DNA of 64,000 nucleotides from Candidatus Microgenomatus sp. (GTDB lineage Bacteria > Patescibacteriota > Microgenomatia > UBA8517): the NCBI GenBank assembly GCA_020724555.1, contig DYGT01000006.1:1649-65648 (forward strand). Direction: 5' to 3'. A program made the position numbers and the translations under genes. Positions 1-49,769 of this stretch are shown here, piece after piece (positions within the stretch are counted from its first letter, which is position 1; each line of letters begins with the position of its first letter). The notes under the pieces are model-generated. The model saw nothing but the letters and a program-made list of their open reading frames with translations. It was not told the origin of the DNA and made no database searches.

Positions 1-1157
1 ACTAACGCATCCAAAACCCTTGCATTTACCCCTCCAATGTGGCAACGGCGTTGCTCTTTTGGAAAATGATGTAATCTCTCCTCGCAGCGATAGTAGTAAT
101 GTCCGTGCCTGTTACAGCCGTCTCCAGCCCTACGGTTGCCACATCCGCACCACAACACCTCTGAGAGTAGATAATCAAACTTTCTATTCTTCCTGGCGTA
201 TCTTCTGTTGTATTCCATTATCACTTGTGCTTTCTCGTATAAAGCTCTATCTTCCATAATTATCGGCACTTTGAAGGGATACCACTCGTCTTTGGTTCGT
301 AACTTGCGGCTGTTTTTCTTAACCTTACGATATTTGTCGTTCTTAATTCTGGTTTTAGACTCTACTGCTTCGTGCTTGTTGTAATAAGCAATGCCTGTCC
401 AATAGGTTTCGCAGCGAAGCATTCTGGTTACCGAACCCTTTGTCCAAAAGTCACTTCTTCTCTTTTTAGGCTTGATGCCAAGGTCATATAAACGCCTAAT
501 GATACCGTTTATTGATATTCTTTCGATAACAAACCACTCAAAAACCAGTTTTATTGTCCGTATTTCTTCTTCGTTTCTTTCCCAGTGCGTAGGCGTGGTA
601 TCGGTTCTCTTGACATAGTTATAGCCATACAAGGCACTCCCGCTTATCACTATGCCATTTTTGGCTTTGTAGAGTTTGCCTCTCCTGAACCGTTCGGCAA
701 TCTTCACTCTTTCGTAGTCATGAAAGCATGCCAATACATTTCTCATAAAACTCTGCTCACCATTTATTGGGTTGATATCGTGAAGTGAGATGAGCTTTAT
801 GCCAGCTTCTTCGAATTCTTTAACAAGGACGAGTTGATAAGTAACATCTCTCGATAAACGACCGAGATCATAAACATATAAAACTTGAATTTCCTGCCTC
901 TTTGTTGCGTCACGCAGAGTATCTAAGCCTGGTCGAGCCAGTATTGTGCCTGTCCAACCATCATCCAAAAAGATGTGTTTATCCGAAAGAATGTTGCCGT
1001 CAGCCTCAATTCGACTTTTAATCTCATCGGTTTGTGACTCTATCGTTTGCTCGTTCTCTTGTCTCCCTGTTGAAACCCTGGCATACAAGCCCGCAATCAA
1101 CGATTGCCTGGCTTGACCGTTCCCTGTATCATTTGTGTTAGGCAGTAAATCTTCCAT
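1..1157 (-). CDS. Large serine recombinase (integrase/resolvase family), C-terminal end outside the window
   Basis: Minus-strand ORF starting at the ATG complementary to 1155-1157 and running off the window start (no Met-to-stop ORF in the track because it is truncated). N-terminal resolvase-type catalytic motif YARVSTGRQ, internal recombinase domain, Cys-rich zinc-ribbon region CGCGNRRAGDGCNRHGHYYYRCEE typical of large serine recombinases. Confidence 0.85.
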   Translation of the reverse strand, partial: MEDLLPNTNDTGNGQARQSLIAGLYARVSTGRQENEQTIESQTDEIKSRIEADGNILSDKHIFLDDGWTGTILARPGLDTLRDATKRQEIQVLYVYDLGRLSRDVTYQLVLVKEFEEAGIKLISLHDINPINGEQSFMRNVLACFHDYERVKIAERFRRGKLYKAKNGIVISGSALYGYNYVKRTDTTPTHWERNEEEIRTIKLVFEWFVIERISINGIIRRLYDLGIKPKKRRSDFWTKGSVTRMLRCETYWTGIAYYNKHEAVESKTRIKNDKYRKVKKNSRKLRTKDEWYPFKVPIIMEDRALYEKAQVIMEYNRRYARKNRKFDYLLSEVLWCGCGNRRAGDGCNRHGHYYYRCEERLHHFPKEQRRCHIGGVNARVLDAL

Positions 1158-1217
1158 TGGTTTATTTGCTTATCAGGGGTCTTGGCTTCGCTAGCGAAAG
1201 ACCTCTGATTTTTTTAA

Positions 1218-1424
1218 TCAAGTTTTCGTCATAGTTTTTTCAAATAACGCTGCCAGTTTTGTATTGCTTATTCGCCAGGCTTTGCCCAACTTCACTGCTG
1301 GCAATTGCCCTCGTCTTGCCATACGATAAATGGTTATTTTGGCAAGTTTCAACTTCTCAGCTGCCTCATTTATGGTTAAGTATTCTTGGTTCTCCATATG
1401 GCTAATTGATGCTGTTTGATACAC
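1218..1424 (-). CDS. Excisionase-family/MerR-like helix-turn-helix DNA-binding protein (putative recombination directionality factor)
   Basis: 68 aa; LTINEAAEKLKLAKITIYRMARRGQLPAVKLGKAWRI matches the excisionase-type HTH (LTxxEAAxxLxVSxxTIYRLxxxGxLPAxKxGxxWRI); immediately next to the serine recombinase. Confidence 0.6.
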   Translation of the reverse strand: MYQTASISHMENQEYLTINEAAEKLKLAKITIYRMARRGQLPAVKLGKAWRISNTKLAALFEKTMTKT

Positions 1425-1591
1425 TCACACACTACCCAGAGGGTCTGTGTAAGTCAAGTGTGATCGCTAATGATCTTTTATCTACCTTTTGTCTGTCTAT
1501 AATGTTTTGCCTCGCCATCGTAAAAATACGGTCATAAACCAGCTTTAAACGCCCAGTGCTTTCTGGTTTGTCTGTATAAATAAAGCTGATG

Positions 1592-2197
1592 TTAGGCGGC
1601 ACTATTCTTCTCATTTTGTTTATCGTTAAATTCGATCTCCAACTCGGTGATCTTTTTACTCAACTCGATTTCTTCTGGAGTTAATGGTCTTTGTTGGCTT
1701 TCATCAATGTAGTTCTTTGAAACTTCGTATTTACCAACTGGTTCACCCCATTCAATTCTTGTCATCTCCCAAAGAATTCTGACCTCCTGAACCGAAGTTG
1801 GTTCACCCGCCTGCATTTGCTTTCTAAGCATTTGCAGTTTGCTCCAGAAAGCCTCTGTAATGAGGTAAGCCCTCTTTTGTCGTATCTGCGTGGTCTTCTT
1901 TTTCAGTCCCTCCAAATCTTCTGCTAATTTCTTGTCTGCCCGCTCCACCCACTGGTATTTAACCGACCAGCGCTCAATTGTCCTTTCCGAGGGTAAATCG
2001 CCGAGTTTAGAGCCAAAAATCACCGACAACTCTCCTGCTGAACTCCGACTTATTTGCTCCCATGCTTGAATTAGTTTGGAAACACTCCCAACTTCGCAAT
2101 ACAGCAAGAAAGCTGTATATTGCTTTTCGGTCTCCCCAGGCATTTTTGATGTTGTTGGTTTTTCAGGTTTTGTTGTTTGCATATAATTCTTCTCCAT
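1592..2197 (-). CDS. Hypothetical protein (mobile-element cargo, charged, possibly DNA-binding)
   Basis: 201-aa ORF in the recombinase/excisionase block; no motif recognised. Confidence 0.4.
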   Translation of the reverse strand: MEKNYMQTTKPEKPTTSKMPGETEKQYTAFLLYCEVGSVSKLIQAWEQISRSSAGELSVIFGSKLGDLPSERTIERWSVKYQWVERADKKLAEDLEGLKKKTTQIRQKRAYLITEAFWSKLQMLRKQMQAGEPTSVQEVRILWEMTRIEWGEPVGKYEVSKNYIDESQQRPLTPEEIELSKKITELEIEFNDKQNEKNSAA

Positions 2198-2849
2198 GCG
2201 GGCAAACGCCAGTTGATTCCCAAAGCGACTCGTCTATTTCCTGCATCGTTTTTATGTCTAAGTTATTTGCGTCTTTCTCTAACATCTCCCGATACTCTTC
2301 ATTACTCCTATGACCATTGCGAAGATTACATCCACACTTAAAGGAACTTAAAGGTTTATAATCGGCTCTTTGCATCTTTGCAACGGATTGAGGAGAATTG
2401 TCGTCATTCTCTTTAGAGACTTTCTGTTGCAAATCTGAATGAGGTTGTTGTGCTTCTGCAACGACGCCTTGCAAATCTGCAATATGTTCTTGCAGGTCAA
2501 CGATCTTTTTCTCTTTAACAATTTCAGTTAGCTTCTCCCGAATATCAAAATCAACCACATACACCCTCTTGCCTTGTTTTCTCCAAAAACCAAGCGAGTA
2601 GAGCTTGCCTGCGTTTCTGCTCACCTTAGAAGGACTCCAACCTATCAACCAACCGATTTCCCAAAGCGCATACTCAAAGCTTCCATATACTTCTCCATGA
2701 CTTTTATCCCAATCAGCAAGGCACGAGTAGCTCAAATCCCACAAGATATACTCCTGATCAGACAACAACTTCCTATGAAGAAGTAAAAACCTCCCTCTAA
2801 AATGACGGTCAAACCCACTTAATCTGTTCATAATCTTTGTTTGTTGCAT
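2163..2849 (-). CDS. Hypothetical protein (mobile-element cargo)
   Basis: 228-aa ORF, co-directional and overlapping the previous ORF by 35 nt; no recognised motif. Confidence 0.4.
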   Translation of the reverse strand: MQQTKIMNRLSGFDRHFRGRFLLLHRKLLSDQEYILWDLSYSCLADWDKSHGEVYGSFEYALWEIGWLIGWSPSKVSRNAGKLYSLGFWRKQGKRVYVVDFDIREKLTEIVKEKKIVDLQEHIADLQGVVAEAQQPHSDLQQKVSKENDDNSPQSVAKMQRADYKPLSSFKCGCNLRNGHRSNEEYREMLEKDANNLDIKTMQEIDESLWESTGVCPHGEELYANNKT

Positions 2850-2860
2850 ACTGATTCTTA

Positions 2861-3160
2861 TTAGACTTTTTCTGAATATAACCTCTCTTTCAGGCTTTTA
2901 ATGACTGTTACTGCCTTACGAAAGTCCACTAAAACCTCTGGAGAGTTTTCCTCCGCAAAATTGAAAGCCCTAAGAATTTCTTGTCGACTTGGGGAATCTT
3001 TCAGAACAAAAACTGATCTATTAGGATTTGAAGAAGGCTGGATTGATATAAGCTCCAAGCCTCGGAGCATCAAAAAAACTGCCGAGTAGAAGCTACTTGT
3101 GTAATACTGATTATCTTTTGATTTTTGACCAGACATAAATACGCCTTTCTCCAGCCACAA
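2861..3160 (-). CDS. Hypothetical protein
   Basis: 99-aa ORF, last gene of the leftward cargo block. Confidence 0.3.
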   Translation of the reverse strand: MWLEKGVFMSGQKSKDNQYYTSSFYSAVFLMLRGLELISIQPSSNPNRSVFVLKDSPSRQEILRAFNFAEENSPEVLVDFRKAVTVIKSLKERLYSEKV

Positions 3161-3625: not shown

Positions 3626-3676
3626 GATTTGACAATCTCTCCCAAGCGAAGTTAACATAGCGAACCATATCAAAAT

Positions 3677-4345
3677 ATGACAATAAAGATGAAAAATAAG
3701 GTTAAAACTATCGTTCCTCTCCTGCTTGTTGTCCTATTGCTTTCACTTGGCGGTTTTTATTTGTTCAAATCATCCCATGATAAGTTTGCGCCTCCCCGCA
3801 AAGACGCTCCAATGGTGCAGTTTCGAGTAGACAAAAAAAATACCCTGATGGCAGTCACTGGTAATCTTCACTACTATGGCTTTGTTAAAGATGAAGAAGC
3901 CCTTGAATATGCCCTGGAACATACCAAAGACAATACTCCTGGTAAGCCTGGGGCAATTAAGATTGGCAATAACAGTATCGATACAGAGACTGCCTACGAT
4001 ATTTCTCAATCAATGACCGCCTGGGAAATAGCCAGAATTCTTCTTAATGAAGGCACACCCAGTATCAGAGACTGTGACCACGGTTGCGAGGAATATAACC
4101 CCTTTACTCCAGCGCTTCTGCCTGGAGGAGATATTGCTCCTACTTGGCAAGAGCGTATGCGGGCTAAATATAGCTGGGTAAAAAACTATGATGACTGTCT
4201 TAAAGCTATTGGTCATGATGGGGGTCAAGTAACTTCTGAGGAGGCTTCCAAGCGCACTGGTCACCCAAGAGTGTGTAATACAGCAGACGGTCGTTATTTT
4301 ATTCAAGGAAAAGAAGGCTGGAGTGATTATCCGCCTTACCCGTAA
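3677..4345 (+). CDS. Secreted/membrane-anchored hypothetical protein
   Basis: 222 aa, N-terminal hydrophobic signal/anchor (IVPLLLVVLLLSLGGFYLF), several Cys. Confidence 0.5.
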   Translation: MTIKMKNKVKTIVPLLLVVLLLSLGGFYLFKSSHDKFAPPRKDAPMVQFRVDKKNTLMAVTGNLHYYGFVKDEEALEYALEHTKDNTPGKPGAIKIGNNSIDTETAYDISQSMTAWEIARILLNEGTPSIRDCDHGCEEYNPFTPALLPGGDIAPTWQERMRAKYSWVKNYDDCLKAIGHDGGQVTSEEASKRTGHPRVCNTADGRYFIQGKEGWSDYPPYP

Positions 4346-5169: not shown

Positions 5170-6177
5170 TCACCTTGAGTAAAATTCCCTAACTGAAGCA
5201 GCTAAAACTCTTACATCTTGGTTGTCTAATCTGAAAAACGGTTTACCCAGTACACTTTCTGGAATACCCATTTTTCTAATAACATCCAGCGCCTGCGCTT
5301 GTGAGACTATCGTTCCACCCCTACTCCTGTCATGTTTGCTAAGAGTCGAAACATCTCTTGAGCCATTGTATTCGCCAAGCATTTGTCTAAGTTCTCTTTT
5401 GACATTTGACCTATCTCGTCTATGTGATTCTCGTTTAGATAAATCACCGCCTCCACCTCTCTGGCTGGCATCAACAAGTGCCTGTTTCATCTCATTCACA
5501 ACCAAACCAAATCTGCCTGTTCTTCTAAACAAATATGCAAATATATAGTCAGCGGGGTTGGCTTCGATTTCCCTCCTGTCCTTAGGGTCAAACTCCATCA
5601 CAATAGCATCTGTTCTCGGCTGCGGGTAAAAAGCTTCTCTGGACACTTGTGCTAAAACTCTTGAGTCAAAAAAAGTCTGACCCAGCAACGACAACTTCCC
5701 AAAGCCCATACTAGCCTCCGATTCCTGAAACTCTCTGGCGACATTATCTCCCAACATCAAGACAGCGCTGCTTATAGGTAAATCTATCAGCTTATACATA
5801 AAAGGTTCAGTAATATGGAAAGGTAAGTTTGCGACAATTTGAGCCTCCTCATCTCTACCAATCAAAGAACCAAACTGCACCCTCAAGGCGTCGCCAAATA
5901 TAAATCTGATTCTTGGGTTTTTTTCTTGAATACCCTCTAAAATAGGTTGAAATCTCTTGTCAATTTCTATCCCAATGACCGAACCAGCTCGTTGAGCAAG
6001 GGCTTCAGTTACATGTCCTATTCCAGAACCAACCTCAATGACTTTTGACCCTTCTATCACTGTAGCAACAAGCCTACCGATCACCCTTTCGTCAATCAAA
6101 AAATGCTGACCCAACCGTTCGCTAAGATCGATTCCTTCTGCCTCTAGTTGCGATGTAATAATTCTCTCTCTATTCAT
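5170..6177 (-). CDS. rRNA adenine N6,N6-dimethyltransferase family protein (KsgA/RsmA/Erm-type), paralogue 1, with an Arg/Ser-rich insertion
   Basis: GQHFLID SAM-binding motif, VIEVGSGIGHVTEAL, NLPFHITEP (motif IV NLPY-like), C-terminal helical domain ending MGIPESVLGKPFFRLDNQDVRVLAASV that resembles the KsgA C-terminus. ~50-aa low-complexity insert (RGGGGDLSKRESHRRDRS...). Confidence 0.8.
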   Translation of the reverse strand: MNRERIITSQLEAEGIDLSERLGQHFLIDERVIGRLVATVIEGSKVIEVGSGIGHVTEALAQRAGSVIGIEIDKRFQPILEGIQEKNPRIRFIFGDALRVQFGSLIGRDEEAQIVANLPFHITEPFMYKLIDLPISSAVLMLGDNVAREFQESEASMGFGKLSLLGQTFFDSRVLAQVSREAFYPQPRTDAIVMEFDPKDRREIEANPADYIFAYLFRRTGRFGLVVNEMKQALVDASQRGGGGDLSKRESHRRDRSNVKRELRQMLGEYNGSRDVSTLSKHDRSRGGTIVSQAQALDVIRKMGIPESVLGKPFFRLDNQDVRVLAASVREFYSR

Positions 6178-8155: not shown

Positions 8156-9304
8156 TTATTTAAATTTTTGATAAACTTTTAAGATTGACTCGGCGAAATC
8201 GATAATCTCATTTTGACTCAATCCAGGGTGCACATAAAGATTAAAAACTCTTTTTGAAATTTCGACGGCTACGGGGGTTAACGCAACATTACCGATACCA
8301 ATTTTTCGACATATTTGAGTTTCGGGGAGAGTTAATGGGTATTGGCGCTTAATAGGAACTCCTTGTTTCAATACCTCTCTGACAAACTGGTCCCTTTTAT
8401 TAGTAAGCCTTTTTGGTAAAATCCCAGTCAGATAACAATAAACATTGTACGTGTCATCGGCTTCCTTTTGGAAAGTAAGATCTGTATTTGCTAATATCTC
8501 TTTGTAAAGCATGGCATATTTTCTTCTAACCTTGTTTAGGTTATCCAGTCTTTCTAACTGCCTCAGACCTAATGCCGCCTGTATTTCTGTCATCTGATAG
8601 TTAAATCCTATGTGATCAAAATCGTAATCATCCACATTCGGATGTTTAATGCCATTGTTTAATATTGAACGAAGAGTATTAGCGTATGATTGAGAGTTAG
8701 TTGTTATCATTCCACCCTCACCACACACGAGATTTTTTGTTTGATAGAAACTAAAACAGCTAATGTCACCGAAAGAGCCGACAAACCTATCTTTGTATTT
8801 AGCGCCTACAGCTTGTGCGCAATCTTCTATTAGGATTAAATTATTTTCTTTGGCTATCTTGACTAGTTCATCCATTCTTGCAGGTTGACCATAAAGGTGC
8901 ACAACAATCAAGGCTTTTGTTCGTTTGGTGATCTTTTTTAAAACATCCTTGGGATCTAAATTAAAATCATCCTCACAAATGTCTACGAAAACTGGGGTAG
9001 CACCTTCTTGAATTACCACAGAAGCATCCGCCATAAAAGTAAGAGATGGAACCAATATTTCATCTCCTTTTTTCAAATTTAATGCAGCCATGGTCGCATG
9101 CAGAGAGGATGTGCCTGAAGAAGTGGCAAATGAAAATCTCCTTCCGAGCAATCTTGACATTCTGTGTTGAAACAACTTAACATAAGGTCCTCCTTCAGGC
9201 TTAGAAAGGAACCCAGACTTTAAAACTTTCACTACATTGTCTATACCTTTCTTGTCGACATTTTGTTTGTTCATTTTCTTTAATAAAGTCGTTATCTTGT
9301 TCAT
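8156..9304 (-). CDS. DegT/DnrJ/EryC1/StrS-family PLP-dependent (sugar) aminotransferase
   Basis: 382 aa; family-typical layout including SFYQTKNLVCGEGGMITTN (PLP-Lys region) and CAQAVGAKYKDRFVGSFGDISCFSF. Confidence 0.85.
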   Translation of the reverse strand: MNKITTLLKKMNKQNVDKKGIDNVVKVLKSGFLSKPEGGPYVKLFQHRMSRLLGRRFSFATSSGTSSLHATMAALNLKKGDEILVPSLTFMADASVVIQEGATPVFVDICEDDFNLDPKDVLKKITKRTKALIVVHLYGQPARMDELVKIAKENNLILIEDCAQAVGAKYKDRFVGSFGDISCFSFYQTKNLVCGEGGMITTNSQSYANTLRSILNNGIKHPNVDDYDFDHIGFNYQMTEIQAALGLRQLERLDNLNKVRRKYAMLYKEILANTDLTFQKEADDTYNVYCYLTGILPKRLTNKRDQFVREVLKQGVPIKRQYPLTLPETQICRKIGIGNVALTPVAVEISKRVFNLYVHPGLSQNEIIDFAESILKVYQKFK

Positions 9305-9306
9305 GC

Positions 9307-10407
9307 TTAACTTACTCCTAGACCTCCAATTAATTGTTTAAGGCTATCTTCCATGTCATATATGGTGCTAATTTTCCCCGCTAAGATGCTCATGTAATAT
9401 GGGTTTTGGGAATGAATGGTGATAAGAGTTGGTCTTGAATCGTCTTTCTCGGAGGACATTAAAATAGGTTTTACTTCGAAGATTGAGTTTAGATATTCAA
9501 AGTCGATATTCTTTTTGAGATAACTCCTAGCGAGAGATTCCGCCCTTTTATCATCTGGTTTAGCTCTTATACCATTAATGTTCTGCGGTTTTGTGTAGGA
9601 AGTATTTAGTGGAGTAAAACTTACTGATGACAAAGAATAGATACTACCATCACCAAACGGCATTAGAGAGAAAAATGGACCATCCATCACGGTTAGCCCA
9701 ATTCCTGAAAATCCATTATTCATCTTGCATATTTTAAGTTCACAAAGCTCATATTTAATATCATAACCATTAAACCCAAACATTTTATTGATCTCGTTAA
9801 CATTACTGTATGTTGCGTTCACAATAAGCGGTGCTTCGAGAAGAGAAGCGTCTTTTAATGTTAAAACATACTTGGAATCTGAAACTTTTTGAGCGGTGGG
9901 GAAGTTTTGGTAATAAATGTCAATATTTTTATTGTTTGAGAGTTGGTTTAGAAAGTATTCCTTAAGTTTTGCGTAATCAAAACATGCCTCTTCTGCTTCA
10001 AAAACAACATCTACTCTATCTTCCTGGAAAAATAGTGACCTACTAACTTCTTTTAATGGAATTCCAACTTTTCTACAAAATCTAATATATTCTTCTGGTG
10101 ATGTCTTAGAATTTTCTTTCGAAATTGCATAATATTGTTTAAAAGGTTTTAGTATAGCGAAGCTAAAGTCGTTGCAAAAACGGTTGTAATAATTTGCTGT
10201 TTTTCGTGCGGTTTCTAAGCTTCTCGGATAGTGATATCCCCTGTGAACCCTTGCTTGATTGATCTTACTTGCTCTCTCAAAAATTTCTTTTTCTTTTTCC
10301 AATACCGCCACTTTTAAGCCTTTGGACGATAGCACCTGTGCGGCATAAAGACCAAAAATTCCCCCGCCAATAATAATCGCATTATATTTTCTAATTTTTT
10401 TACTCAT
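9307..10407 (-). CDS. FAD/NAD(P)-binding oxidoreductase
   Basis: N-terminal Rossmann dinucleotide-binding motif YNAIIIGGGIFGLYAAQVLSSKGLKVAVLEKE; 366 aa. Confidence 0.7.
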   Translation of the reverse strand: MSKKIRKYNAIIIGGGIFGLYAAQVLSSKGLKVAVLEKEKEIFERASKINQARVHRGYHYPRSLETARKTANYYNRFCNDFSFAILKPFKQYYAISKENSKTSPEEYIRFCRKVGIPLKEVSRSLFFQEDRVDVVFEAEEACFDYAKLKEYFLNQLSNNKNIDIYYQNFPTAQKVSDSKYVLTLKDASLLEAPLIVNATYSNVNEINKMFGFNGYDIKYELCELKICKMNNGFSGIGLTVMDGPFFSLMPFGDGSIYSLSSVSFTPLNTSYTKPQNINGIRAKPDDKRAESLARSYLKKNIDFEYLNSIFEVKPILMSSEKDDSRPTLITIHSQNPYYMSILAGKISTIYDMEDSLKQLIGGLGVS

Positions 10408-11399
10408 GATTCTTTAGATTTAAATGGTATTTGAATTCCTTCTGGATTTATCTGAACATAATCTCTATATTCTTTGATATTTTTTAACTCTTTGATTGTC
10501 TCTCTGAGGAGCTTGATATAAGGTCTATAAATAATCCTTTCTACTTCTGGAGAGATAGGGTAATCGTTGTGCCTGTCGCCAGTGATAATATATCGGTAAT
10601 TTTTCAAATTCATTCTAAAACTGTGGTAGTGATAATAGACTAACGGATAGCTGTCATTCAGCAAAATTTGATCATTTTTCTTGGTGATATCATATTTCTG
10701 AATATTCCACGGGGCAGCATTTGTCCCAACATTAACAAGTTCTCTCACTTTTTTAAATCGTGTTCTCCAATCGTCCAAATACTTCTGCTCTCCAAACTTA
10801 CCATCTTCAAATTTTGATGAACACCATTCCATCGTTCTTTTATGCCACCAATCCAGAATTTTTTTGCTATTTCTGTTTTTCCTAAAACACTGAAAAGAGG
10901 TGCAATAATAGCCAACTCTAACAAAGTCATTTACAAATTGGAAAGAAAAATTGTTTGGCTGGATCAACACATCGGCATTGCCAAGCTCCTTGAAGATTAC
11001 TTCAGGAGATTGAAAAAACATTAAGTCGCAATCACAAGAAGAGATAAAATCCGTGTCCTGCTCTAATAAAACCTTCCTAGTTATAAAAGGGTTGCAAGCC
11101 CAATAGTATTCATATCTTTTTACTTTCGAAGCCTTAACCTTCAGCAATTCCTTATTTTCGAACTCTGTTGGATGATAAATTTTGATATTTTTGTAGTTCA
11201 GCTTCCTAAAAATATTGTAAGCTATATCGTCAAAGCAAAACATGTGTAAGAGAAAGTTTTTATGAACTTTTGACAGAGATTTGTATAAAACAATCGCTTT
11301 ATGCAAATAATTAGCGTCGGTGCTAGTTGCGATATGCCTAACTGATGATGTCCTGACGGATTTATTATTTTGCATAATTAATCGGATCAACAGACCCAT
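10404..11399 (-). CDS. Putative nucleotide-sugar (glycosyl)transferase-like protein
   Basis: 331 aa soluble protein with a DxD-like acidic cluster (SSCDCDLMFF) and overall resemblance to small capsule/LPS-type transferases; weak assignment. Confidence 0.4.
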   Translation of the reverse strand: MGLLIRLIMQNNKSVRTSSVRHIATSTDANYLHKAIVLYKSLSKVHKNFLLHMFCFDDIAYNIFRKLNYKNIKIYHPTEFENKELLKVKASKVKRYEYYWACNPFITRKVLLEQDTDFISSCDCDLMFFQSPEVIFKELGNADVLIQPNNFSFQFVNDFVRVGYYCTSFQCFRKNRNSKKILDWWHKRTMEWCSSKFEDGKFGEQKYLDDWRTRFKKVRELVNVGTNAAPWNIQKYDITKKNDQILLNDSYPLVYYHYHSFRMNLKNYRYIITGDRHNDYPISPEVERIIYRPYIKLLRETIKELKNIKEYRDYVQINPEGIQIPFKSKES

Positions 11400-12048
11400 T
11401 CCTTTGGAATGCCTCTAATCTTGATTTACAATTACTACACCTACCACAGGCAATATCAGAATTGTTATGGCATGACCAAGTCAACTCGAAGGGCACTCCA
11501 AGCTCAAGACCCAACCTGACTGCACCGATCTTGTCAGTTTGAATTAAGGGGGCAACTATCTGAATTGACGGCTTTATAAGAGTTCCCTCCTCAATTAAAC
11601 GCTGCATTGCCTCGACAAATTTTGGACTGTTATCTGGGCAGATATGGTCTCCGCCAGTTGAACCTATACAAACGGCCCCAGCCCTTAAATACTCTGCATA
11701 AGCAATAGCCTGGCTCTCCAAAATAGCGTTTCTGTTGGGAACATATTCATTAACAGCAGTTGTCAGCGTTTCACTCTGAGTTAATGAGACTCCTGGTAGA
11801 GATTTAAGAAGTGGAACTTCAACAACCTTTAAACTTGCACCAAAGTGTTTAGAAAGTGCCTGGGCACACCCCAATTCCTTCTCATAAGTTTTTTGTCCCC
11901 AATCGAAAAATATAAAATGCAACTTAAAACCAGCTCTAGCCATTAGGGCGGCTGCTACAGCGCTATCCAAACCACCACTTACGGTGCATACAGCACTTCT
12001 GCGATCGATTGACTCAAGTCTTTTTTGAATTTCAATTTCTTTTCCCAT
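11365..12048 (-). CDS. queC: 7-cyano-7-deazaguanine synthase QueC
   Basis: PP-loop SGGLDSAVAA, C-terminal zinc motif CGRCSNCKSRLEAF; start chosen at MGKEIEIQ (ATG 12046-12048), directly after the queE stop. Confidence 0.9.
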   Translation of the reverse strand: MGKEIEIQKRLESIDRRSAVCTVSGGLDSAVAAALMARAGFKLHFIFFDWGQKTYEKELGCAQALSKHFGASLKVVEVPLLKSLPGVSLTQSETLTTAVNEYVPNRNAILESQAIAYAEYLRAGAVCIGSTGGDHICPDNSPKFVEAMQRLIEEGTLIKPSIQIVAPLIQTDKIGAVRLGLELGVPFELTWSCHNNSDIACGRCSNCKSRLEAFQRNGSVDPINYAK

Positions 12049-12049
12049 A

Positions 12050-12832
12050 TTAAGTTCTTCTTTTAGGACCAAACCATATAAGCTGATTTCTAAGTGTGAT
12101 TCTCCAACCCCTAACTTCAACTACTTCTCTAATTACACCCAAGTGTGCCTCTACCTCTTCCTTTGTATGTCCCTCAGGCATCAATAAGATTTTTCCATTG
12201 TCTAAATTACATTCCTCAATAATCTTGTCGATTTCATCTAAATCAGAAGGTCTTGTAACCACGAATTTAAATTGCGATTTGGGCAATCCATTTATTACTC
12301 TCAAAACTTCTGGTTTATATCTTCTCTGTAGAGTATTTCCACTATTCTCGAGCTTTGGGGAACAATTAAATTGACAAGTATGCAACTCTGGAATAGGCAT
12401 AACTGTCCCATTTGTTTCTATTTCCACTTTCCACCCTAGCAGTTTTTGCAGAAGCCTGGCAATCTTCTTTTGCTGCAACAATGGTTCGCCTCCAGTTACA
12501 ACCAGCCTTCGCTCTTTTGATGGGGAGAAAGTTGACTCCCAAGCATTACTAATCTTGATGGCAGCTTCATTGTAAGACCAATCTTCTGGTTCTTGCCAAA
12601 ACTCCCGCTTGCTAGTATCCCAAGTATATCCAGTATCACATAACCATCCGTTTGGAACACCGCATGTTAAATTACAGTAGTGAAGGCGCAAAAAGACAGA
12701 AGGTAGACCTGCAGTAATACCCTCTCCCTGAAAAGTCGTAAAAACTCCATCACCACTAACCTTTAATTTATCGGGCTGAGGTTTTATTCTCTCTCGATCC
12801 TCTGGTGTCGGTTTATATATTTCTCGAGTCAT
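12050..12832 (-). CDS. queE: 7-carboxy-7-deazaguanine synthase QueE (radical SAM)
   Basis: Radical-SAM cysteine cluster CNLTCGVPNGWLCDTGYTWD in a QueE-length protein; 4-nt overlap with queD. Confidence 0.85.
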   Translation of the reverse strand: MTREIYKPTPEDRERIKPQPDKLKVSGDGVFTTFQGEGITAGLPSVFLRLHYCNLTCGVPNGWLCDTGYTWDTSKREFWQEPEDWSYNEAAIKISNAWESTFSPSKERRLVVTGGEPLLQQKKIARLLQKLLGWKVEIETNGTVMPIPELHTCQFNCSPKLENSGNTLQRRYKPEVLRVINGLPKSQFKFVVTRPSDLDEIDKIIEECNLDNGKILLMPEGHTKEEVEAHLGVIREVVEVRGWRITLRNQLIWFGPKRRT

Positions 12833-13299
12833 AATCTTTTTTCCAATTTTTCAATATCCTTCCGTGTGCAGATAGCCGCACTTGTAGGTGTTTCCCACAA
12901 CTTGATAGAGTAAAGTCTCAAACCCGTTTTGTATTTATCTTTTATGTGACCATCAAGCTGTTTAAATATCCAGGCGGCAATATTTTCAGAAGTAGGCACA
13001 AATGGAACAATAATATATTTCTGTTCGGCATTTTCCTTGAAGAATTTTACAAGAACCTCGTCTTTATTCCACACCATAAACCCATGATCTAACACATTAT
13101 GAACCCGTTCTGTCGCAATTTTCTTGATATCGCCAAAATCTATCACCATCCCTTCATTAGAAACGCCCTCTATATTTACAAGATCGCCCTCAACACATAT
13201 CTCGGCTTTATATCTGTGACCATGCAAATTTCTACACTGCGAGTGGTGATTAGTTACCCGATGCCCCATATCCCACTGGATTTCCTTTATAACTTTCAT
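12829..13299 (-). CDS. queD: 6-carboxy-5,6,7,8-tetrahydropterin synthase QueD (PTPS family)
   Basis: 156 aa, CRNLHGHRYKAEICVEGD zinc/catalytic motif of the PTPS/QueD family. Confidence 0.85.
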   Translation of the reverse strand: MKVIKEIQWDMGHRVTNHHSQCRNLHGHRYKAEICVEGDLVNIEGVSNEGMVIDFGDIKKIATERVHNVLDHGFMVWNKDEVLVKFFKENAEQKYIIVPFVPTSENIAAWIFKQLDGHIKDKYKTGLRLYSIKLWETPTSAAICTRKDIEKLEKRL

Positions 13300-13300
13300 A

Positions 13301-13885
13301 TCATTTGCTTTGTTGGCTGTTTATTTCTCTATAAAATTGATCTATTAATTTAGTGTTCTTTTTTAGTAACCCTCTAAATATCGTTGTTTTCGTAATACAA
13401 TCTCTTTTTCTTACACCTCTCATACTCATACAAAGGTGTTCTGCTTCAATTGTGACGATTAATCCTCTCGGATTTAAATTTTCCTCTAAAGCATTGGCTA
13501 TTTGGTTAGTGAGATTTTCTTGCGTTTGAAATCGGTGGCTCAAAATTTCCGTCAATCGGACAAACTTAGAGAGTCCAAGCACTTTCCCGTTGGGAATATA
13601 ACCAATATGGATTTTCCCAAAAAACGGGAGCATATGGTGTTCACAGAGACTATGAAACCCTATATTCGTTAGGGTTACTAAATCTTTGTAACCGTTGCTT
13701 TTAAATGTTTTGAAGACTGTCTTTGGATCTTGAGAGTACCCACTAAGCAACTCTTCATACATCCTGAAAACTCTTATGGGTGTTTCTGCTAAACCATCTC
13801 TGGATATATCTTCACCGAAACTATTCAACAACTGGAGGATAAAATTGGTGACTAATTCTTTTCGAGAACCACTCTTATTTGTCAT
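13301..13885 (-). CDS. folE: GTP cyclohydrolase I FolE
   Basis: HSLCEHHMLPFFGKIHIGYIPNGKVLGLSKFVRLTEILSHRFQ is the conserved GCH-I core (CEHH ... VLGLSK). Confidence 0.9.
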   Translation of the reverse strand: MTNKSGSRKELVTNFILQLLNSFGEDISRDGLAETPIRVFRMYEELLSGYSQDPKTVFKTFKSNGYKDLVTLTNIGFHSLCEHHMLPFFGKIHIGYIPNGKVLGLSKFVRLTEILSHRFQTQENLTNQIANALEENLNPRGLIVTIEAEHLCMSMRGVRKRDCITKTTIFRGLLKKNTKLIDQFYREINSQQSK

Positions 13886-14001
13886 ATGTTGGGTTTTAAC
13901 CTTGCACGACGGCCTACACTTTGATGTTGTGCAGCACGCCCAACTACCGTTGCAATAACTGAATTATACTACAATAAGACGGTATTTGCAAAAATTACGA
14001 A

Positions 14002-15338: not shown

Positions 15339-15529
15339 TTATTTTTTGTTCCTCAGTATTGTTTCAATGTCTTTGGGATCGTAACGCCTGTCGCCTCGCT
15401 TATTAACTCTAATAGCCTTTAATTTCCCGCTTTTACCCCACCTGCGCAAAGTCTCTAATGCACATTCAGAACTTCTGCTGCCTGTTTTATGGTTAAAAGT
15501 TTTGGTAATTCACTTTTGGTCTTCGGCAT
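15339..15529 (-). pseudogene. Excisionase-family HTH gene interrupted by a frameshift
   Basis: Minus-strand reading gives MPKTKSELPKLLTIKQAAEVLNVH then a stop. The +1 frame continues LETLRRWGKSGKLKAIRVNKRGDRRYDPKDIETILRNKK, which together form an excisionase-type HTH (LTIKQAAExLxVSxxTLRRWxKxGKLKAIR). Not in the ORF track because each piece is under 60 aa. Confidence 0.45.
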
Positions 15530-15579
15530 ACTTATACAAAATTGTACAAATTCTGGGTGAAATTTGCTATACTGTTTTT

Positions 15580-15793
15580 ATGGACAAAGTTAGAACTGAA
15601 GCTACTTTAACCTGTCCAAAGTGCGGTAAAGACCAAAAGGTCACCATCCATGCCCATCGACGCCTGTCAACACTTCTACAAATGCGTCCACTGTGGGGAA
15701 ATGTTAAAGCCAAAAGAAGGTGACTGCTGTGTTTTTTGCTCATATGCCAACAGCAAATGCCCGCCAAAACAAATAGGATCTCAACAATTATGA
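15580..15793 (+). CDS. Small Cys-rich zinc-ribbon protein, apparently frameshifted
   Basis: Frame A is MDKVRTEATLTCPKCGKDQKVTIHAHRR...; the +1 frame continues MPIDACQHFYKCVHCGEMLKPKEGDCCVFCSYANSKCPPKQ. Successive CxxC pairs suggest one zinc-ribbon protein split by a frameshift. Confidence 0.35.
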
Positions 15794-15951
15794 AGATAAA
15801 CAAGGAATGGCACTTGGCAAACAGGATGCCTAAAAATCCAACACTCGATCAGAGAGTCAAATGGCATGTTGAACACGCCAGAAATTGCTCTTGCCGTCCT
15901 CTTAGTGGAAAAATCTTGGAAGAGATTAAGAAACGAGGCATTAAAGTCTAA
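15790..15951 (+). CDS. Small conserved hypothetical protein
   Basis: MKINKEWHLANRMPKNPTLDQRVKWHVEHARNCSCRPL... reads like a conserved small-protein family; ATGA overlap with the preceding zinc-ribbon ORF. Confidence 0.4.
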   Translation: MKINKEWHLANRMPKNPTLDQRVKWHVEHARNCSCRPLSGKILEEIKKRGIKV

Positions 15952-16202
15952 GCCTGAATCTGTGCTATTGTAGGACTTTCAAAGGTTAGAGGTGGTGGCG
16001 TAGAGTGTATTATCCTCCCGCAATCGTCTCTCTGGGTTATTATTCTCACTTTTCTTTTGTTGGGAAGTATCAATCCAAACCTGAAGTCTAATGTTGTGGT
16101 TTGGTAAGTTCTATCCCAATCGAAAGTTTTGACATGAATGAAGTATATCAAAATTTGAACTAATTTCTTATTCTGCCTTTCGCCATTTTGTTTGACCTTC
16201 AT
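15948..16202 (-). CDS. Small hypothetical ORF, copy A of a locally repeated sequence
   Basis: 84 aa; paralogous to the ORF at 19431-19613 (YFIHVKTFD...ILPNKRKVRIITQRDDCGRIIHSTPP versus YFIHVKTYD...ILPNKRTVTIITKRDEYGRIIRSIPP). Confidence 0.35.
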   Translation of the reverse strand: MKVKQNGERQNKKLVQILIYFIHVKTFDWDRTYQTTTLDFRFGLILPNKRKVRIITQRDDCGRIIHSTPPPLTFESPTIAQIQA

Positions 16203-17539
16203 GATCGTATAATTTTACCCCCATCTGAGTTAATCTGTCTCTGACCTGATCAGCTTCTTCATAGCGTTTTGCTTTTCTCAAAGCATTTCTCTGCTCAATT
16301 AGTCGTTCGATTTCCCTTATATCATCAACCTCTTTGTGTTCAAACCTAAAAACGCCAAAAACTTTGTCAATTTTTCTAAAAAACTCTATTGCACTTTTCC
16401 CAGCCTCACCGTCAATATTTCTTGCCTTCAGATAATCATATATAAGAGACAAGGCTTGGGGGGGTGTTAAAGTCATTATCAAGAGCTGCTATTACACCTG
16501 CTTTTAACTCATCCACCAGTTCTTTCTCTTTAGCCGAGGCATACCCACTATCAAGTCTAAACATAAACTCATCAATTCTCTGCAATGCCTGCCTAGACTG
16601 TTCCAGGACATCTTCATCGTATGTCAATGTAGATCTATAATGACCACTAATAAACATAAATCTCAATACCCGCGGATCATTTGCTTTTAGTGCCTCTCTA
16701 ATAGTTACTATGTTTCCCAAACTCTTTGACATTTTCTCTTCTTTCATGTTCAAAAACCCAGCATGAAGCCAATATTTTACAAATGGGACTTTGCCAGAAA
16801 CGGCTTCCATCTGTGCTATCTCTGCCTCATGATGGGGAAACATTAAATCAACTGCTCCACCGTGAATATCGTACTGAGGCCCAAAGATAGTTTCTGTAAT
16901 TGCTGTATCCTCGATATGCCATCCCGGTCGACCGTTCCCTATATCAGTCTCCCAATAAGGCTCTCCTTCCTTTGCAAATTTCCACAAGCAAAAGTCATTA
17001 GGTCCACGTTTTTCAGGATCTTCATCAACTCGAGAAACACCGTCGGACGGTTTCACATCAGTCCGCCCCGAGAGCTTGCCATAATCAGCGAATCTAGCAA
17101 TTTCAAAATAAATTCCACCTGAAGTTCGGTAGGCATAACCTTATTCTTGGAGTCTCTTTACTTGATCAACGATTTGAGGTATAAAGTCTGTTGCATTAGC
17201 ATATTCAGTTACAGCATCATTCCCAAGTGCCCGCATATCATCTATGAATATGTCTCGATACTTATCGGCTAATTCACGCCAAGAAGTTCCTCTTTCGCGA
17301 GAGCGATTTATAATCTTATCATCAATATCAGTTATATTTTGTAAGTAGTGTACATCATAACCTCGATACCTTAGATATTTAACAATAAAATCAAATTGGG
17401 TAAATGTCTTTGCGTTGCCGATGTGTGCGTAATCATACACAGTAGGACCGCAGACAAACATTTTTACTTCTCTATCGTCGCCAATCGGCTCAAAACTCTC
17501 AGTGCTTCTGGATAGAGTGTTGAAAATTTCAATACTCAT
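16168..17539 (-). pseudogene. cysS: Degenerate second copy of cysteine--tRNA ligase (cysS), disrupted
   Basis: Three consecutive minus-strand ORFs carry the CysRS N-terminus (CGPTVYDYAHIGNAKT), core (HIEDTAITE..., KMSKSLGN) and C-terminal anticodon-binding region. Fragment 1 ends with an in-frame TAA where the intact copy at 37453-38883 has Lys (LQE*GYAY versus LEEKGFTY). Fragments 2 and 3 are offset by a frameshift in a G7 run (16448-16454). Confidence 0.8.
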
Positions 17540-48452: not shown

Positions 48453-49769
48453 TTAACTTAAATCTATTGGGAATTTTTTACAAAGCTTTTTTACTTCACT
48501 TCGTATCTCTAATAAAAATTTGTCTTTAACGATATCAGCTTTGAATTTTTTCAAAGTTTTTCTTCTTTGCTCATCGTCTTCTGGCACTTTTTGGGTACCA
48601 ACCCGTTCAACCACGTCGCTCACCCACTTTGCAATCTGTTTCATTTCCCTCTCTTTCATTCCCCGGACAGTTATAGCAGGAGTTCCGAGCCGTAATCCTG
48701 AAGGATAATAAGGTGAACCTGTATCATTAGGAATTGTATTGCGATTAGTAACAATTCCGGCAACCTCCAATGCCCAAGCAACATGCCAACCGGTTGTTCT
48801 TTTATTTCGCAAATCTACCAAAACCAAATGCTTATCAGTACCCCCGCTTATGACCTTAAAACCATATTTCTGTAATTCAGCCGATAGTGTTTTAGCATTC
48901 TTAATCACCTGTTTTGCATATTTTTCAAATCCCGCCGTTTGTGACTTTTCCAAAGCTATCGCTATTCCAGCAATACTGTGCAGATGCGGACCGCCTTGAA
49001 ATCCGGGAAAAATCGAGGCGTCTATAAGTGGCATAAGTTTACTTCTTGCAAAAATTAATGCTGCACGCGGGCCGCGTAAAGTCTTATGGGTTGTCATCAT
49101 CACTACATCGGAATAAGCAAACGGAGATTTATTTACCCCCCCGGCAATAAGTCCTGCCTCATGGCTCACATCAGCTAAATAATATGCACCAACTTCTTTT
49201 GCAATTCTCCCCATTTCAAAATGTTTAATCTCCCGGGGATATGCAGTGCCTCCGGAAATCAGTAATTTAGGTCTAAATTTCTTAGCCTCCTTTTCGATCT
49301 CAGCGTAATTTAACACACCTGTCTTAGGATCAACGTGATAAAAACTAACCTTATATGTTTTTGCCGAACTGGTTATTTTTTTACCCCCGTACTCCCAACC
49401 ATGGCTAAGGTGTCCCCCGTCAGATAAATACATTGACAATATCCTATCTCCGGGTTCCAATAATGCGTTATAAATAGCCAAATTAGCAGGCGTCCCACTA
49501 TAAGCTTGCACATTAACTCCCCACTTTTTAGGATTCAATTTAAAGGCCTTTAGAGCTTGATCCTCGCAATATTGCTCAATCCGATCAACTATTCCCATTC
49601 CCTGGTAGTAACGCTTATTGGGTTGCCCCTCAGCATATTTATGCATTAATACCGACCCAACAGCAGCTCTGACCTCAGGATAGGTATAATTTTCAGAAGG
49701 TATCATCATAAGTGTTTCCGCTTGCCGTTTTTCTTCTTGGGCAATTAAAGACTTGAGGTTTTGATTCAT
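48453..49769 (-). CDS. glyA: Serine hydroxymethyltransferase (housekeeping copy)
   Basis: 438 aa; SHMT signatures GGHLSHG and TTHKTLRGPRAALIF with the PLP-lysine. Confidence 0.9.
   Translation of the reverse strand: MNQNLKSLIAQEEKRQAETLMMIPSENYTYPEVRAAVGSVLMHKYAEGQPNKRYYQGMGIVDRIEQYCEDQALKAFKLNPKKWGVNVQAYSGTPANLAIYNALLEPGDRILSMYLSDGGHLSHGWEYGGKKITSSAKTYKVSFYHVDPKTGVLNYAEIEKEAKKFRPKLLISGGTAYPREIKHFEMGRIAKEVGAYYLADVSHEAGLIAGGVNKSPFAYSDVVMMTTHKTLRGPRAALIFARSKLMPLIDASIFPGFQGGPHLHSIAGIAIALEKSQTAGFEKYAKQVIKNAKTLSAELQKYGFKVISGGTDKHLVLVDLRNKRTTGWHVAWALEVAGIVTNRNTIPNDTGSPYYPSGLRLGTPAITVRGMKEREMKQIAKWVSDVVERVGTQKVPEDDEQRRKTLKKFKADIVKDKFLLEIRSEVKKLCKKFPIDLS

Follow-up and report, generated by a model that had tools for sequence, protein, structure and literature searches.

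The 64,000-nucleotide stretch analyzed here (hereafter, the window), from contig DYGT01000006.1 of a Candidatus Microgenomatus sp. assembly, encodes two divergent KsgA-like methyltransferases, here named KsgA1 and KsgA2, which bracket an operon predicted to make and decorate a 7-deazaguanine base. Judged by profile scores and tree placement, neither of them is an ordinary housekeeping KsgA, and both belong to one clade specific to Patescibacteria (the Candidate Phyla Radiation, CPR). An earlier, sequence-only reading of the window had handled their placement at the ends of the operon as incidental, but we find this small family tied to such clusters across distant lineages. Our tentative interpretation is that these enzymes are dedicated to the clusters and would protect the ribosomes of the producer. 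The two genes are as follows.

5170..6177, minus strand: KsgA1, the long form of the KsgA-like methyltransferase (335 residues) and last gene of the operon; Pfam RrnaAD, 120 bits
14002..14967, minus strand: KsgA2, a short KsgA-like methyltransferase without the insert described below; Pfam RrnaAD, 130 bits

Both open reading frames (ORFs), initially proposed to be full-length genes of the KsgA/Erm family, are indeed present on the minus strand and match Pfam RrnaAD, with E-values of 1e-34 for KsgA1 and 1e-37 for KsgA2. The latter measures 321 residues if translated from the TTG at 14967, or 304 residues from the ATG at 14916, which is the start chosen by gene callers. The two proteins align over their full length (BLASTP, E 1e-69) and share the catalytic motifs that had been spotted in them, GQHFL[IV]D and [NS]LP[FY]HITEP, with motif IV reading NLPF in KsgA1 and SLPY in KsgA2. 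Their identity had been put at about 45% by eye but measures 34% in BLASTP (112/329), 40% once 48 gap columns are left out, and 38% in the MAFFT alignment of the family, which makes them divergent paralogues, as had been suggested. Several independent contigs carry identical or orthologous full-length proteins for both copies, and neither is therefore a pseudogene; a recent duplication is likewise ruled out by the 34–40% identity, the intact ORFs, and the orthologues of both. No third KsgA-like ORF was found within the 64-kb window when all six frames were searched with a hidden Markov model (HMM) of the family.

Profile scores set the pair apart from both RsmA/KsgA and Erm. On the NCBIfam RsmA/KsgA model TIGR00755, which is the best-scoring NCBI curated model for each of them, KsgA1 and KsgA2 reach 141.4 and 145.8 bits, and both fail the cut-off of 171, while on the Erm-broad model NF000499 they reach 109.1 and 116.9 bits, and both fail the cut-off of 212. 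Three more distant family members score 148–151 bits on the RsmA model, and all members tested fall below 171. In contrast, control KsgAs from Patescibacteria and Peregrinibacteria (L038, L051, and L082, genes of metagenome-assembled genomes from a GTDB scan) pass with 228, 197, and 194 bits, respectively, and two further ordinary KsgAs (P0116 and P0118) score 250–265 bits. In neighbor-joining trees, which are distance based, without bootstrap, and support main splits only, the control KsgAs group with Escherichia coli KsgA and ErmC (both entered by hand and serving solely as outgroups), and the relatives of KsgA1 and KsgA2 form a separate group, in which KsgA1 belongs to a 60-member clade. 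This phylogeny against KsgA and Erm places both copies in one Patescibacteria-specific clade apart from ordinary KsgA. Of the explanations raised at the outset, a housekeeping KsgA in the pair does not stand, neither copy, scoring below the RsmA cut-off, being an ordinary KsgA; a resistance or self-resistance methylase and an island-borne, accessory origin were sensible options, and the view of the two genes as full-length paralogues that diverged without recent duplication was right. In JGI annotations, family members are labeled 16S rRNA dimethyltransferase.

An AlphaFold2 (AF2) model of KsgA1, with a predicted local distance difference test score (pLDDT) of 90, displays an N-terminal helix, a methyltransferase domain, and a C-terminal helical domain; this is the two-domain KsgA/Dim1 fold, and it bears out the KsgA-type C-terminal domain first recognized from the sequence. 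The best matches of the model in the PDB (Foldseek) are Dim1 from Methanocaldococcus jannaschii and Pyrococcus horikoshii, and KsgA from Bacillus subtilis. The residues binding S-adenosylmethionine (SAM) are invariant over 62 diverse members (G50, G52, G54, E48, E71, and D73) or nearly so (D96). In the family, motif IV starts with N or S and ends with F or Y, Ser replacing Asn in about 45% of members, and it conforms to the pattern (A/S/N)(L/I/V)P(Y/F) of N6 methyltransferases that dimethylate (PMC6787224). Three signatures mark the family, namely HITEP, the Glu of which is invariant, PRTD, and a C-terminal KPFxQLxN; within HITEP, beside motif IV, H121 and E124 are both invariant and family specific. 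GQHFL and PYHIT are common to the family and to canonical Patescibacteria KsgA, which suggests that the family likely descends from a CPR-type KsgA.

The C-terminal domain of KsgA1 contains a segment that KsgA2 lacks.

5302..5466, minus strand: Arg/Ser/Gly-rich insert in the C-terminal domain of KsgA1, residues 238–292, as delimited in the family alignment

This insert, which appears as one 46-residue gap opposite KsgA2 (BLASTP), includes 10 Arg, 9 Ser, and 8 Gly among its 55 residues and has a net charge of +6. As the sequence-only reading held, it is real and foreign to both typical KsgA and Erm, but it is not peculiar to KsgA1: about 80% of the family (174 of the 204 typed members retrieved) carries 36–59 extra residues in the same place, including most proteins that are nearer to KsgA2 than to KsgA1, and insert-free forms such as KsgA2 are a scattered minority. 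Its first half is conserved, following the pattern G(T)LSK(R/K)ExHxRxRSxVKxxLRxxxxxYN, with a median pI of 10.1, a net charge of +4, and a basic stretch that reads LSKRExHxRxRSxVKRELRQ, while its second half is variable. Structure prediction gives two helices at moderate confidence (residues 248–273 and 278–285, pLDDT 57–78), which in the AF2 model, when compared by Foldseek, amount to a single extra helical hairpin on the KsgA/Dim1 fold. We could thus rule out a one-off low-complexity expansion, because most members have the insert and its basic helix is conserved. Taken with the KsgA-type N-terminal helix and C-terminal domain that have been kept, the Arg-rich helix of the insert indicates that the family is probably RNA binding.

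The genomic context of the family was compared with that of ordinary KsgA. Loci were annotated using single-sequence phmmer at a 50-bit threshold, the queries being the proteins of the window and of related loci, and near-duplicates were removed, which gave 28 family loci (27 having 4 kb of flank or more, together with L108, in which a pair of family genes brackets the cluster) and, after the same treatment, a control set of 67 ordinary-KsgA loci of at least 8 kb. At least one of FolE/FolE2, QueD, QueE, and QueC is encoded in 24 of the 28 family loci, as opposed to a single ordinary-KsgA locus out of 67 with a 7-deazaguanine gene (Fisher p 2.5e-17). At least three of the four 7-deazaguanine steps are present in 17 of the 28, and the nine family members that we looked up by exact protein match all adjoin genes of this pathway. 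The four negative loci (L016, L123, L135, and L136) include the most divergent members and one member at a contig end. Linkage persists down to 31–45% identity despite altered gene order and orientation; the order of the FolE/QueD/QueE/QueC core is kept in 17 loci, and QueE lies between QueD and QueC in related loci. In L135, a 215-residue Erm-like methyltransferase (141 bits on Erm-broad and 123 bits on KsgA) is encoded 5 kb from the family member (3627–4274 and 9572–10636); this locus is without 7-deazaguanine genes and has instead an ATP-grasp protein, a peptidase MA, a class I methyltransferase, and a TrpD-like phosphoribosyltransferase.

The family is rare. A single-sequence search with the C-terminal 140 residues of KsgA1 returned 54 matches at E≤1e-3, and 22 at E≤1e-10, among 1.84 billion representative proteins; a search of 241 million metagenome records for the family peptide P[YF]HITEPF gave 83 occurrences and 47 loci; and the GTDB scan contained 2 full-length family members among the 571 confirmed matches listed, most of which are ordinary KsgAs of other phyla. 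No relatives were found on viral contigs in IMG/VR, and we therefore ruled out a phage origin. Because of these counts, and because KsgA is common near dnaA, rnpA, and rpmH in Microgenomatia and Paceibacteria according to a published survey (PMC12102498), the family cannot be the general KsgA of CPR bacteria. Named homologues belong to Levybacteria, Gottesmanbacteria, Daviesbacteria, Parcubacteria, WWE3, and "Patescibacteria group," and they point to a CPR host, probably related to Microgenomates. Locus L015 (CAYNMC010000016.1), which has the same cluster and a KsgA1 that is 86% identical, was deposited as "uncultured Pseudomonadales," and family member P0198 is labeled Niabella sp.; both are probably binning or labeling errors for CPR contigs.

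In the window, the two genes lie on the same strand at the two ends of a preQ0/sugar operon, just as had been read from the sequence. This is an eleven-gene minus-strand block running from 14967 down to 5170, in which KsgA2 and KsgA1 bracket nine co-directional genes and most neighbors abut or overlap. The nine genes, together with a promoter-like sequence and a second serine hydroxymethyltransferase (SHMT) outside the block, are listed below.

13963..13992, minus strand: promoter-like TTGCAA-17-TATAAT between KsgA2 and FolE; consensus scan, 10/12 matches, weak evidence
13301..13885, minus strand: GTP cyclohydrolase I FolE; NCBIfam FolE, 201–224 bits, above cut-offs
12829..13299, minus strand: QueD-like 6-carboxytetrahydropterin synthase; Pfam PTPS, 106 bits; NCBIfam QueD, 86 bits against a cut-off of 89.25
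12050..12832, minus strand: QueE-like radical-SAM enzyme; NCBIfam QueE models, 55–70 bits, under cut-offs
11365..12048, minus strand: QueC-like 7-cyano-7-deazaguanine synthase; Pfam QueC, 161 bits; NCBIfam QueC, 138.8 bits against a cut-off of 150.3
10404..11399 (10404–11243 according to gene callers), minus strand: GT-A/GT8-like retaining glycosyltransferase, from its predicted fold
9307..10407, minus strand: FAD-dependent oxidoreductase of the DAO family; Pfam DAO and NAD_binding_8
8156..9304, minus strand: DegT/PseC-type nucleoside diphosphate (NDP)-sugar aminotransferase; Pfam DegT_DnrJ_EryC1, 338 bits
6898..8154, minus strand: SHMT paralogue of the cluster; Pfam SHMT, 305 bits
6199..6897, minus strand: P-loop small-molecule kinase-like protein, 232 residues; Walker A GVPLSGKST
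48453..49769, minus strand: second, housekeeping-like SHMT, adjoining FolD; Pfam SHMT, 482 bits

FolE, QueD, QueE, and QueC occur together, which means that the core of a 7-deazapurine cluster is present, and they are followed by a tailoring set (GT8-like transferase, oxidase, aminotransferase, SHMT paralogue, and kinase) with putative substrates. The glycosyltransferase-like protein has no Pfam match at E<0.01, and its assignment comes from an AF2 model (pLDDT 92) whose best folds are LARGE1, glycogenin, and LgtC, and from the invariance of its DxD residues D123 and D125. Among its 103 homologues, the taxon names given by the sources are all of CPR lineages, with the exception of one protein labeled Chlorobiota. 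The DAO oxidoreductase is found with DegT and a glycosyltransferase in L012, L108, and L112, and the aminotransferase is PseC/LegC/WecE-like in NCBIfam but under every equivalog cut-off. Since the SHMT of the cluster is the weaker match to the Pfam family and shows 38% identity to the better SHMT at 48453–49769, the cluster possesses a separate, diverged version of a housekeeping enzyme; in its PLP-lysine motif, LDKT replaces THKT. The P-loop protein has weak NCBIfam matches to 2-phosphoglycerate kinase, and PDB sequence searches with this protein and with the glycosyltransferase-like protein yielded nothing useful. KsgA2 and FolE are separated by 116 nt, and the kinase gene and KsgA1 by 21 nt. 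In the promoter/terminator scan, the number of sites in the region is not above that expected from shuffling, and no riboswitch or leader was found near either KsgA-like gene in Rfam, at the gathering threshold or at E≤1.

The clusters vary from locus to locus. The tailoring set of the window (GT8-like transferase, DAO oxidase, and DegT) is shared with L012 and L108, whereas other loci have a carbamoyltransferase and a GT2 (L005, L015, L101, L107, and L111), DegT with a GT-A, an APH kinase, and a GT1, in which case FolE is the only base gene (L007, L095, L097, and L103), DegT with an ATP-grasp protein (L006), or a GFO oxidoreductase with DegT, GT8, and NUDIX (L014). Extra class I methyltransferases occur in L011, L013, and L131, and a cystathionine-synthase-like pyridoxal phosphate (PLP) enzyme in L006, L009, and L129. 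The kinase and the SHMT paralogue are adjacent in the window and in L005, L009, L013, L015, L101, L107, L122, and L129, and they are separated by one MTS gene in L011 and L131. A BpsA-like aminopropyltransferase and an AdoMet decarboxylase, both missing from the window, directly precede FolE (or, in L133, the KsgA-like gene) in 11 loci (L005, L007, L012, L015, L097, L101, L103, L107, L111, L126, and L133), and in these lineages an aminopropyl or polyamine group may be part of the product. QueC homologues of ~376 residues instead of ~227 were seen in L012 (18072–19202), L111 (5198–6340), and L139 (1–843), and they may be amide-forming variants like RoyL of the peptidyl-deazapurines (bioRxiv 10.64898/2026.04.15.718813). 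Having its own SHMT paralogue, and tailoring sets that differ between loci, the cluster is, as far as gene content can tell, one of specialized metabolism.

Two family members are found in 6 of the 28 loci (the window, L006, L009, L014, L108, and L131), and each of these pairs consists of one long, insert-bearing member, which falls in the 60-member clade together with KsgA1, and one short, insert-free member of 269–304 residues. The catalytic motifs (SAM motifs I–III and motif IV) are complete in both partners; an inactive pseudo-enzyme as one partner was accordingly ruled out in the five long/short pairs that were compared (5/5). Family genes are located at cluster edges or divergently transcribed in the window, L012, L013, L014, and L131. 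Genes of mobile elements are often found beside the cluster, including integrases, a ParB-methyltransferase fusion, a terminase, and TnsA-like genes; mobile or phage genes flank it in L005, L011, and L012.

We tentatively favor, while accepting that it may well prove wrong, a reading in which the family consists of cluster-dedicated rRNA adenine methyltransferases that protect the ribosomes of the producer; the RNA substrate, the ribosome as a target, the toxicity of the product, and the protection itself are what we infer. Both proteins are predicted to be catalytically active, using SAM to methylate adenine N6 in RNA; their small family, confined to Patescibacteria, would have split off from a CPR-type KsgA and become dedicated to a variable cluster. 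In that cluster, FolE, QueD, QueE, and QueC would make a 7-deazaguanine base, to which the GT8-like transferase would add a sugar that might then be oxidized, aminated, extended, or phosphorylated. By methylating its own rRNA, the maker would be spared by the product, presumably a ribosome-binding nucleoside or an aminoglycoside-like compound. The long form, with its basic helical insert, and the short form would constitute a two-enzyme set, acting perhaps on different sites, to different methylation states, or at different times of expression. Self-protection is ranked first because producer self-resistance by Erm-family enzymes is the closest working precedent. The pikromycin producer protects itself with PikR1 and PikR2, a pair sharing 39% identity that mono- and dimethylates A2058; both enzymes, like ErmE, contain disordered regions rich in Arg and Gly through which they are thought to bind rRNA (PMC6787224). 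As with producer self-resistance genes, the family is encoded beside its cluster across relatives (24/28 vs. 1/67), and clusters needing small-molecule methylation also carry ordinary class I methyltransferases (L011 and L013).

Several points weigh against self-protection. The product of the cluster, its target, and a resistance phenotype are all conjectural, as is a hit on the ribosome; no exporter gene was seen in the clusters examined, which is odd for a secreted antibiotic; KsgA1 and KsgA2 are nearer to KsgA than to Erm on the NCBI models; and the coexistence of a canonical ksgA with the family in a carrier genome is presumed, none being present in the 64-kb window. It is because of these four points that our confidence is no higher. 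Furthermore, we know of no 7-deazaguanine glycoside, huimycin and dapiramicin included, that is a ribosome inhibitor, and resistance to kasugamycin, the antibiotic of the KsgA site, comes from loss of methylation and not from gain. Finally, with H121 and E124 invariant beside motif IV, the substrate base may not be adenine.

Instead of protecting the producer, the enzymes could take part in biosynthesis, as N-methyltransferases that mono- or dimethylate an exocyclic amine of the product, either N2 of 7-deazaguanine or the sugar amine added by DegT. N,N-dimethylation of an exocyclic amine is precisely the chemistry of KsgA, KsgA1 closes the operon 21 nt past the kinase gene, and the family-specific H121 and E124 suggest an altered substrate pocket. 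There are parallels in the DesVI/TylM1-type N,N-dimethylation that follows transamination and in the N6,N6-dimethyladenine of puromycin, and the sets of oxidoreductase, DegT, and NUDIX, kinase, or ATP-grasp resemble aminonucleoside pathways of the puromycin type (Pur10/Pur4/Pur7/Pur3/Pur6). We nevertheless consider this unlikely: the RNA-binding C-terminal domain of KsgA is strongly conserved and has gained an Arg-rich helix, neither of which would be needed for a small substrate; KsgA1 is kept in clusters without DegT (L005, L101, L107, and L111) and where only FolE is present (L007, L097, and L103); and ordinary small-molecule methyltransferases are already there in the clusters where they are needed. 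We have similar doubts about nucleic-acid hypermodification, in which a glycosylated 7-deazaguanine would be made in or on rRNA, tRNA, or DNA, and the KsgA-like proteins would be the part that binds nucleic acid and flips the base, whether to methylate that site, to make it ready, or to act with an unusual cosubstrate. In primary metabolism, 7-deazaguanines serve as nucleic-acid modifications (queuosine, archaeosine, and the Dpd modification of DNA), and phages pair a P-loop kinase with a PLP enzyme in post-replicative base hypermodification. The predicted RNA-binding character of the family would suit such a role, as would its patchy, island-like distribution beside recombinases, DNA methyltransferases, and phage genes, reminiscent of DNA-modification and defense islands, the KsgA/Erm-like domain of the MADS defense protein mad2, and the lack of an exporter in the clusters examined. 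Yet the genes called in nine loci include no TGT/DpdA-type transglycosylase (PF01702), the annotated loci have neither a restriction nor a nuclease partner, and no family member is found on viral contigs; ordinary KsgAs match mad2 better than the family does; every gene in the cluster of the window has been assigned, leaving none to spare; and the tailoring enzymes are all of NDP-sugar or small-molecule types. A narrower version, in which an RNA-directed step places or processes glycosylated 7-deazaguanine on rRNA and has nothing to do with resistance, strikes us as quite improbable, although it would be the earliest example of 7-deazaguanine chemistry on rRNA; the KsgA fold could then recognize a guanine-like base through the family His and Glu, or use a cosubstrate other than SAM.

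The family could also be a displaced housekeeping KsgA, that is, a divergent form that replaced the ordinary ksgA, was duplicated in some genomes, still makes m6,2A1518/1519, and travels with the cluster. This would account for the KsgA/Dim1 enzymes being the top HMM and fold matches, for the KsgA-type N terminus, and for the GQHFL/PYHIT motifs common to canonical Patescibacteria KsgA; it also agrees with the JGI label, and with a canonical ksgA being absent from the window and only presumed elsewhere in a carrier genome. We find it improbable because the family is far too rare for a CPR KsgA, and because Patescibacteria have a canonical RsmA, commonly near the origin in Microgenomatia and Paceibacteria (PMC12102498). 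Moreover, a housekeeping gene would not be expected to stay linked, through deep divergence, to a cluster that is accessory and variable, two catalytically intact copies are retained in genomes of 0.6–0.8 Mb, and the SHMT paralogue illustrates that the cluster carries dedicated copies of housekeeping enzymes. In a last reading, the product, a SAM- or adenosine-like 7-deazapurine, would inhibit KsgA-type methyltransferases, and the copies in the cluster would be insensitive versions of the target. Nucleosides of the 7-deazapurine and sinefungin types do inhibit methyltransferases. Housekeeping-type duplicates inside clusters are the usual signature of target-based self-resistance (the logic of ARTS; PMC13613211), and the SHMT-like and cystathionine-synthase-like PLP enzymes and the AdoMet decarboxylase of the clusters would fit it too. 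The basic insert and the long/short pair are left unexplained, however. KsgA is, in addition, dispensable in most bacteria, which makes it a poor antibiotic target, and we know of no such inhibitor; we regard this as very improbable.

Outside the operon, the window is filled with housekeeping genes, encoding cysteinyl-tRNA synthetase (CysRS), DnaX, a prolyl-tRNA synthetase (ProRS)-like protein, an RseP-like protease, FolD, SHMT, ThyX, TopA, DprA, PBP2, MreB, Fmt, and one tRNA-Thr. The apparent 1-kb gap upstream of KsgA2 is occupied by three small overlapping plus-strand ORFs (15502–15951) for Cys-rich, zinc-ribbon-like proteins (CPKCG..., GDCCVFCSY..., and KEWH...NCSCRP) and by the tail of a decayed CysRS duplicate (15948–17539, minus strand), interrupted by one in-frame stop as well as a frameshift and sharing 36% identity with the intact CysRS (37453–38883); these two lesions, and the absence of the duplicate from related loci, ruled it out as an MshC-like part of the cluster. 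Downstream of KsgA1, in a stretch resembling a mobile element, there is a LOOT RNA (Rfam RF03000; 3486–3602, plus strand; 81.9 bits against a gathering threshold of 46.4) upstream of a secreted-looking ORF at 3677–4345. Further on, between KsgA1 and YchF, the region 1–3160 on the minus strand (L001 13018–16697) encodes DUF5659, two unknown proteins, HTH_17, and a large serine recombinase, and looks like an integrated element. The ThyX protein (50544–52175, minus strand) is 543 residues long, roughly double the normal size, and matches Thy1 in two stretches.

Full-text searches found no literature linking KsgA-like genes with 7-deazaguanine clusters, or preQ0 and such clusters with Patescibacteria. 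The subfamily, its insert, the pairing, and the cluster context appear to be undescribed, the protein fold and the chemistry being known. CPR genomes are smaller than 1 Mb and thought to be nearly devoid of secondary metabolism, and here ~10 kb is given over to a diversifying 7-deazaguanine-sugar pathway. If self-protection is true, it would mean a new class of ribosome-directed nucleoside or aminoglycoside-like compounds from CPR bacteria, together with a new family of rRNA-methylation resistance that descends from KsgA instead of Erm, and it offers a target hypothesis that is directly testable. Should the enzymes rather act in biosynthesis or on modified nucleic acid, the known repertoire of the KsgA fold would be widened. 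Under any reading, the default annotation as an RsmA 16S rRNA dimethyltransferase is inappropriate for the genes of this family.

Compared with known systems, the family shares with KsgA/RsmA and Dim1 the Pfam RrnaAD match, the two-domain fold, the N-terminal helix, the C-terminal helical domain, the SAM motifs, and motif IV. It differs from KsgA/RsmA in scoring below the RsmA cut-off, in having HITEP and PRTD in place of (N/Y)I(S/T)(S/T)P and PKVD, and in the basic insert of 46–57 residues in its C-terminal domain; moreover, KsgA/RsmA is near-universal and single copy, whereas the family is rare, often paired, and found in an accessory biosynthetic cluster. With the Erm enzymes of producers (PikR1/PikR2, and also TlrA/TlrD and ErmE), it has in common the superfamily, variants of motif IV, and an Arg/Gly-rich, poorly ordered extra segment that presumably binds rRNA, and PikR1/PikR2 are likewise two cluster-encoded paralogues, ~35–39% identical (34–40% for the pair in the window). 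Unlike Erm, the family reaches only 109–117 bits against a cut-off of 212, has the N-terminal helix that Erm lacks, carries its basic segment internally and not at the C terminus, and is hosted by CPR bacteria beside a 7-deazaguanine glycoside pathway, not a macrolide pathway. Dpd and the 7-deazaguanine DNA modifications of phages resemble our loci in that preQ0 genes lie in a patchy, island-like locus beside mobile elements, but the family loci are without a DpdA/TGT transglycosylase or DpdB–K-like partners and are not on viral contigs. A known defense system was rejected, since PADLOC gives only a generic match to the methyltransferase domain of mad2, as was mad2 of MADS itself, of which only the methyltransferase part (profile positions 241–452 of 492) matches, with 53–65 bits as opposed to 67–86 bits for ordinary KsgAs. 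The closest likeness of the operon as a whole is to the 7-deazapurine clusters (toyocamycin/tubercidin, huimycin, dapiramicin, and peptidyl-deazapurines), which combine the FolE-QueD-QueE-QueC core with a glycosyltransferase and other tailoring enzymes (PMC7439116; bioRxiv 10.64898/2026.04.15.718813). Those clusters are overwhelmingly actinomycete, and a 2026 survey of ~2 million genomes places them mainly in Streptomyces, a text search of it showing no mention of KsgA, rRNA, or Patescibacteria (bioRxiv 10.64898/2026.04.15.718813). Here, in contrast, the host is a CPR bacterium, the transferase is GT8-like, the core is accompanied by an SHMT paralogue and a P-loop kinase, or by carbamoyltransferase, APH, or aminopropyltransferase modules, and a KsgA-like gene is its constant companion.

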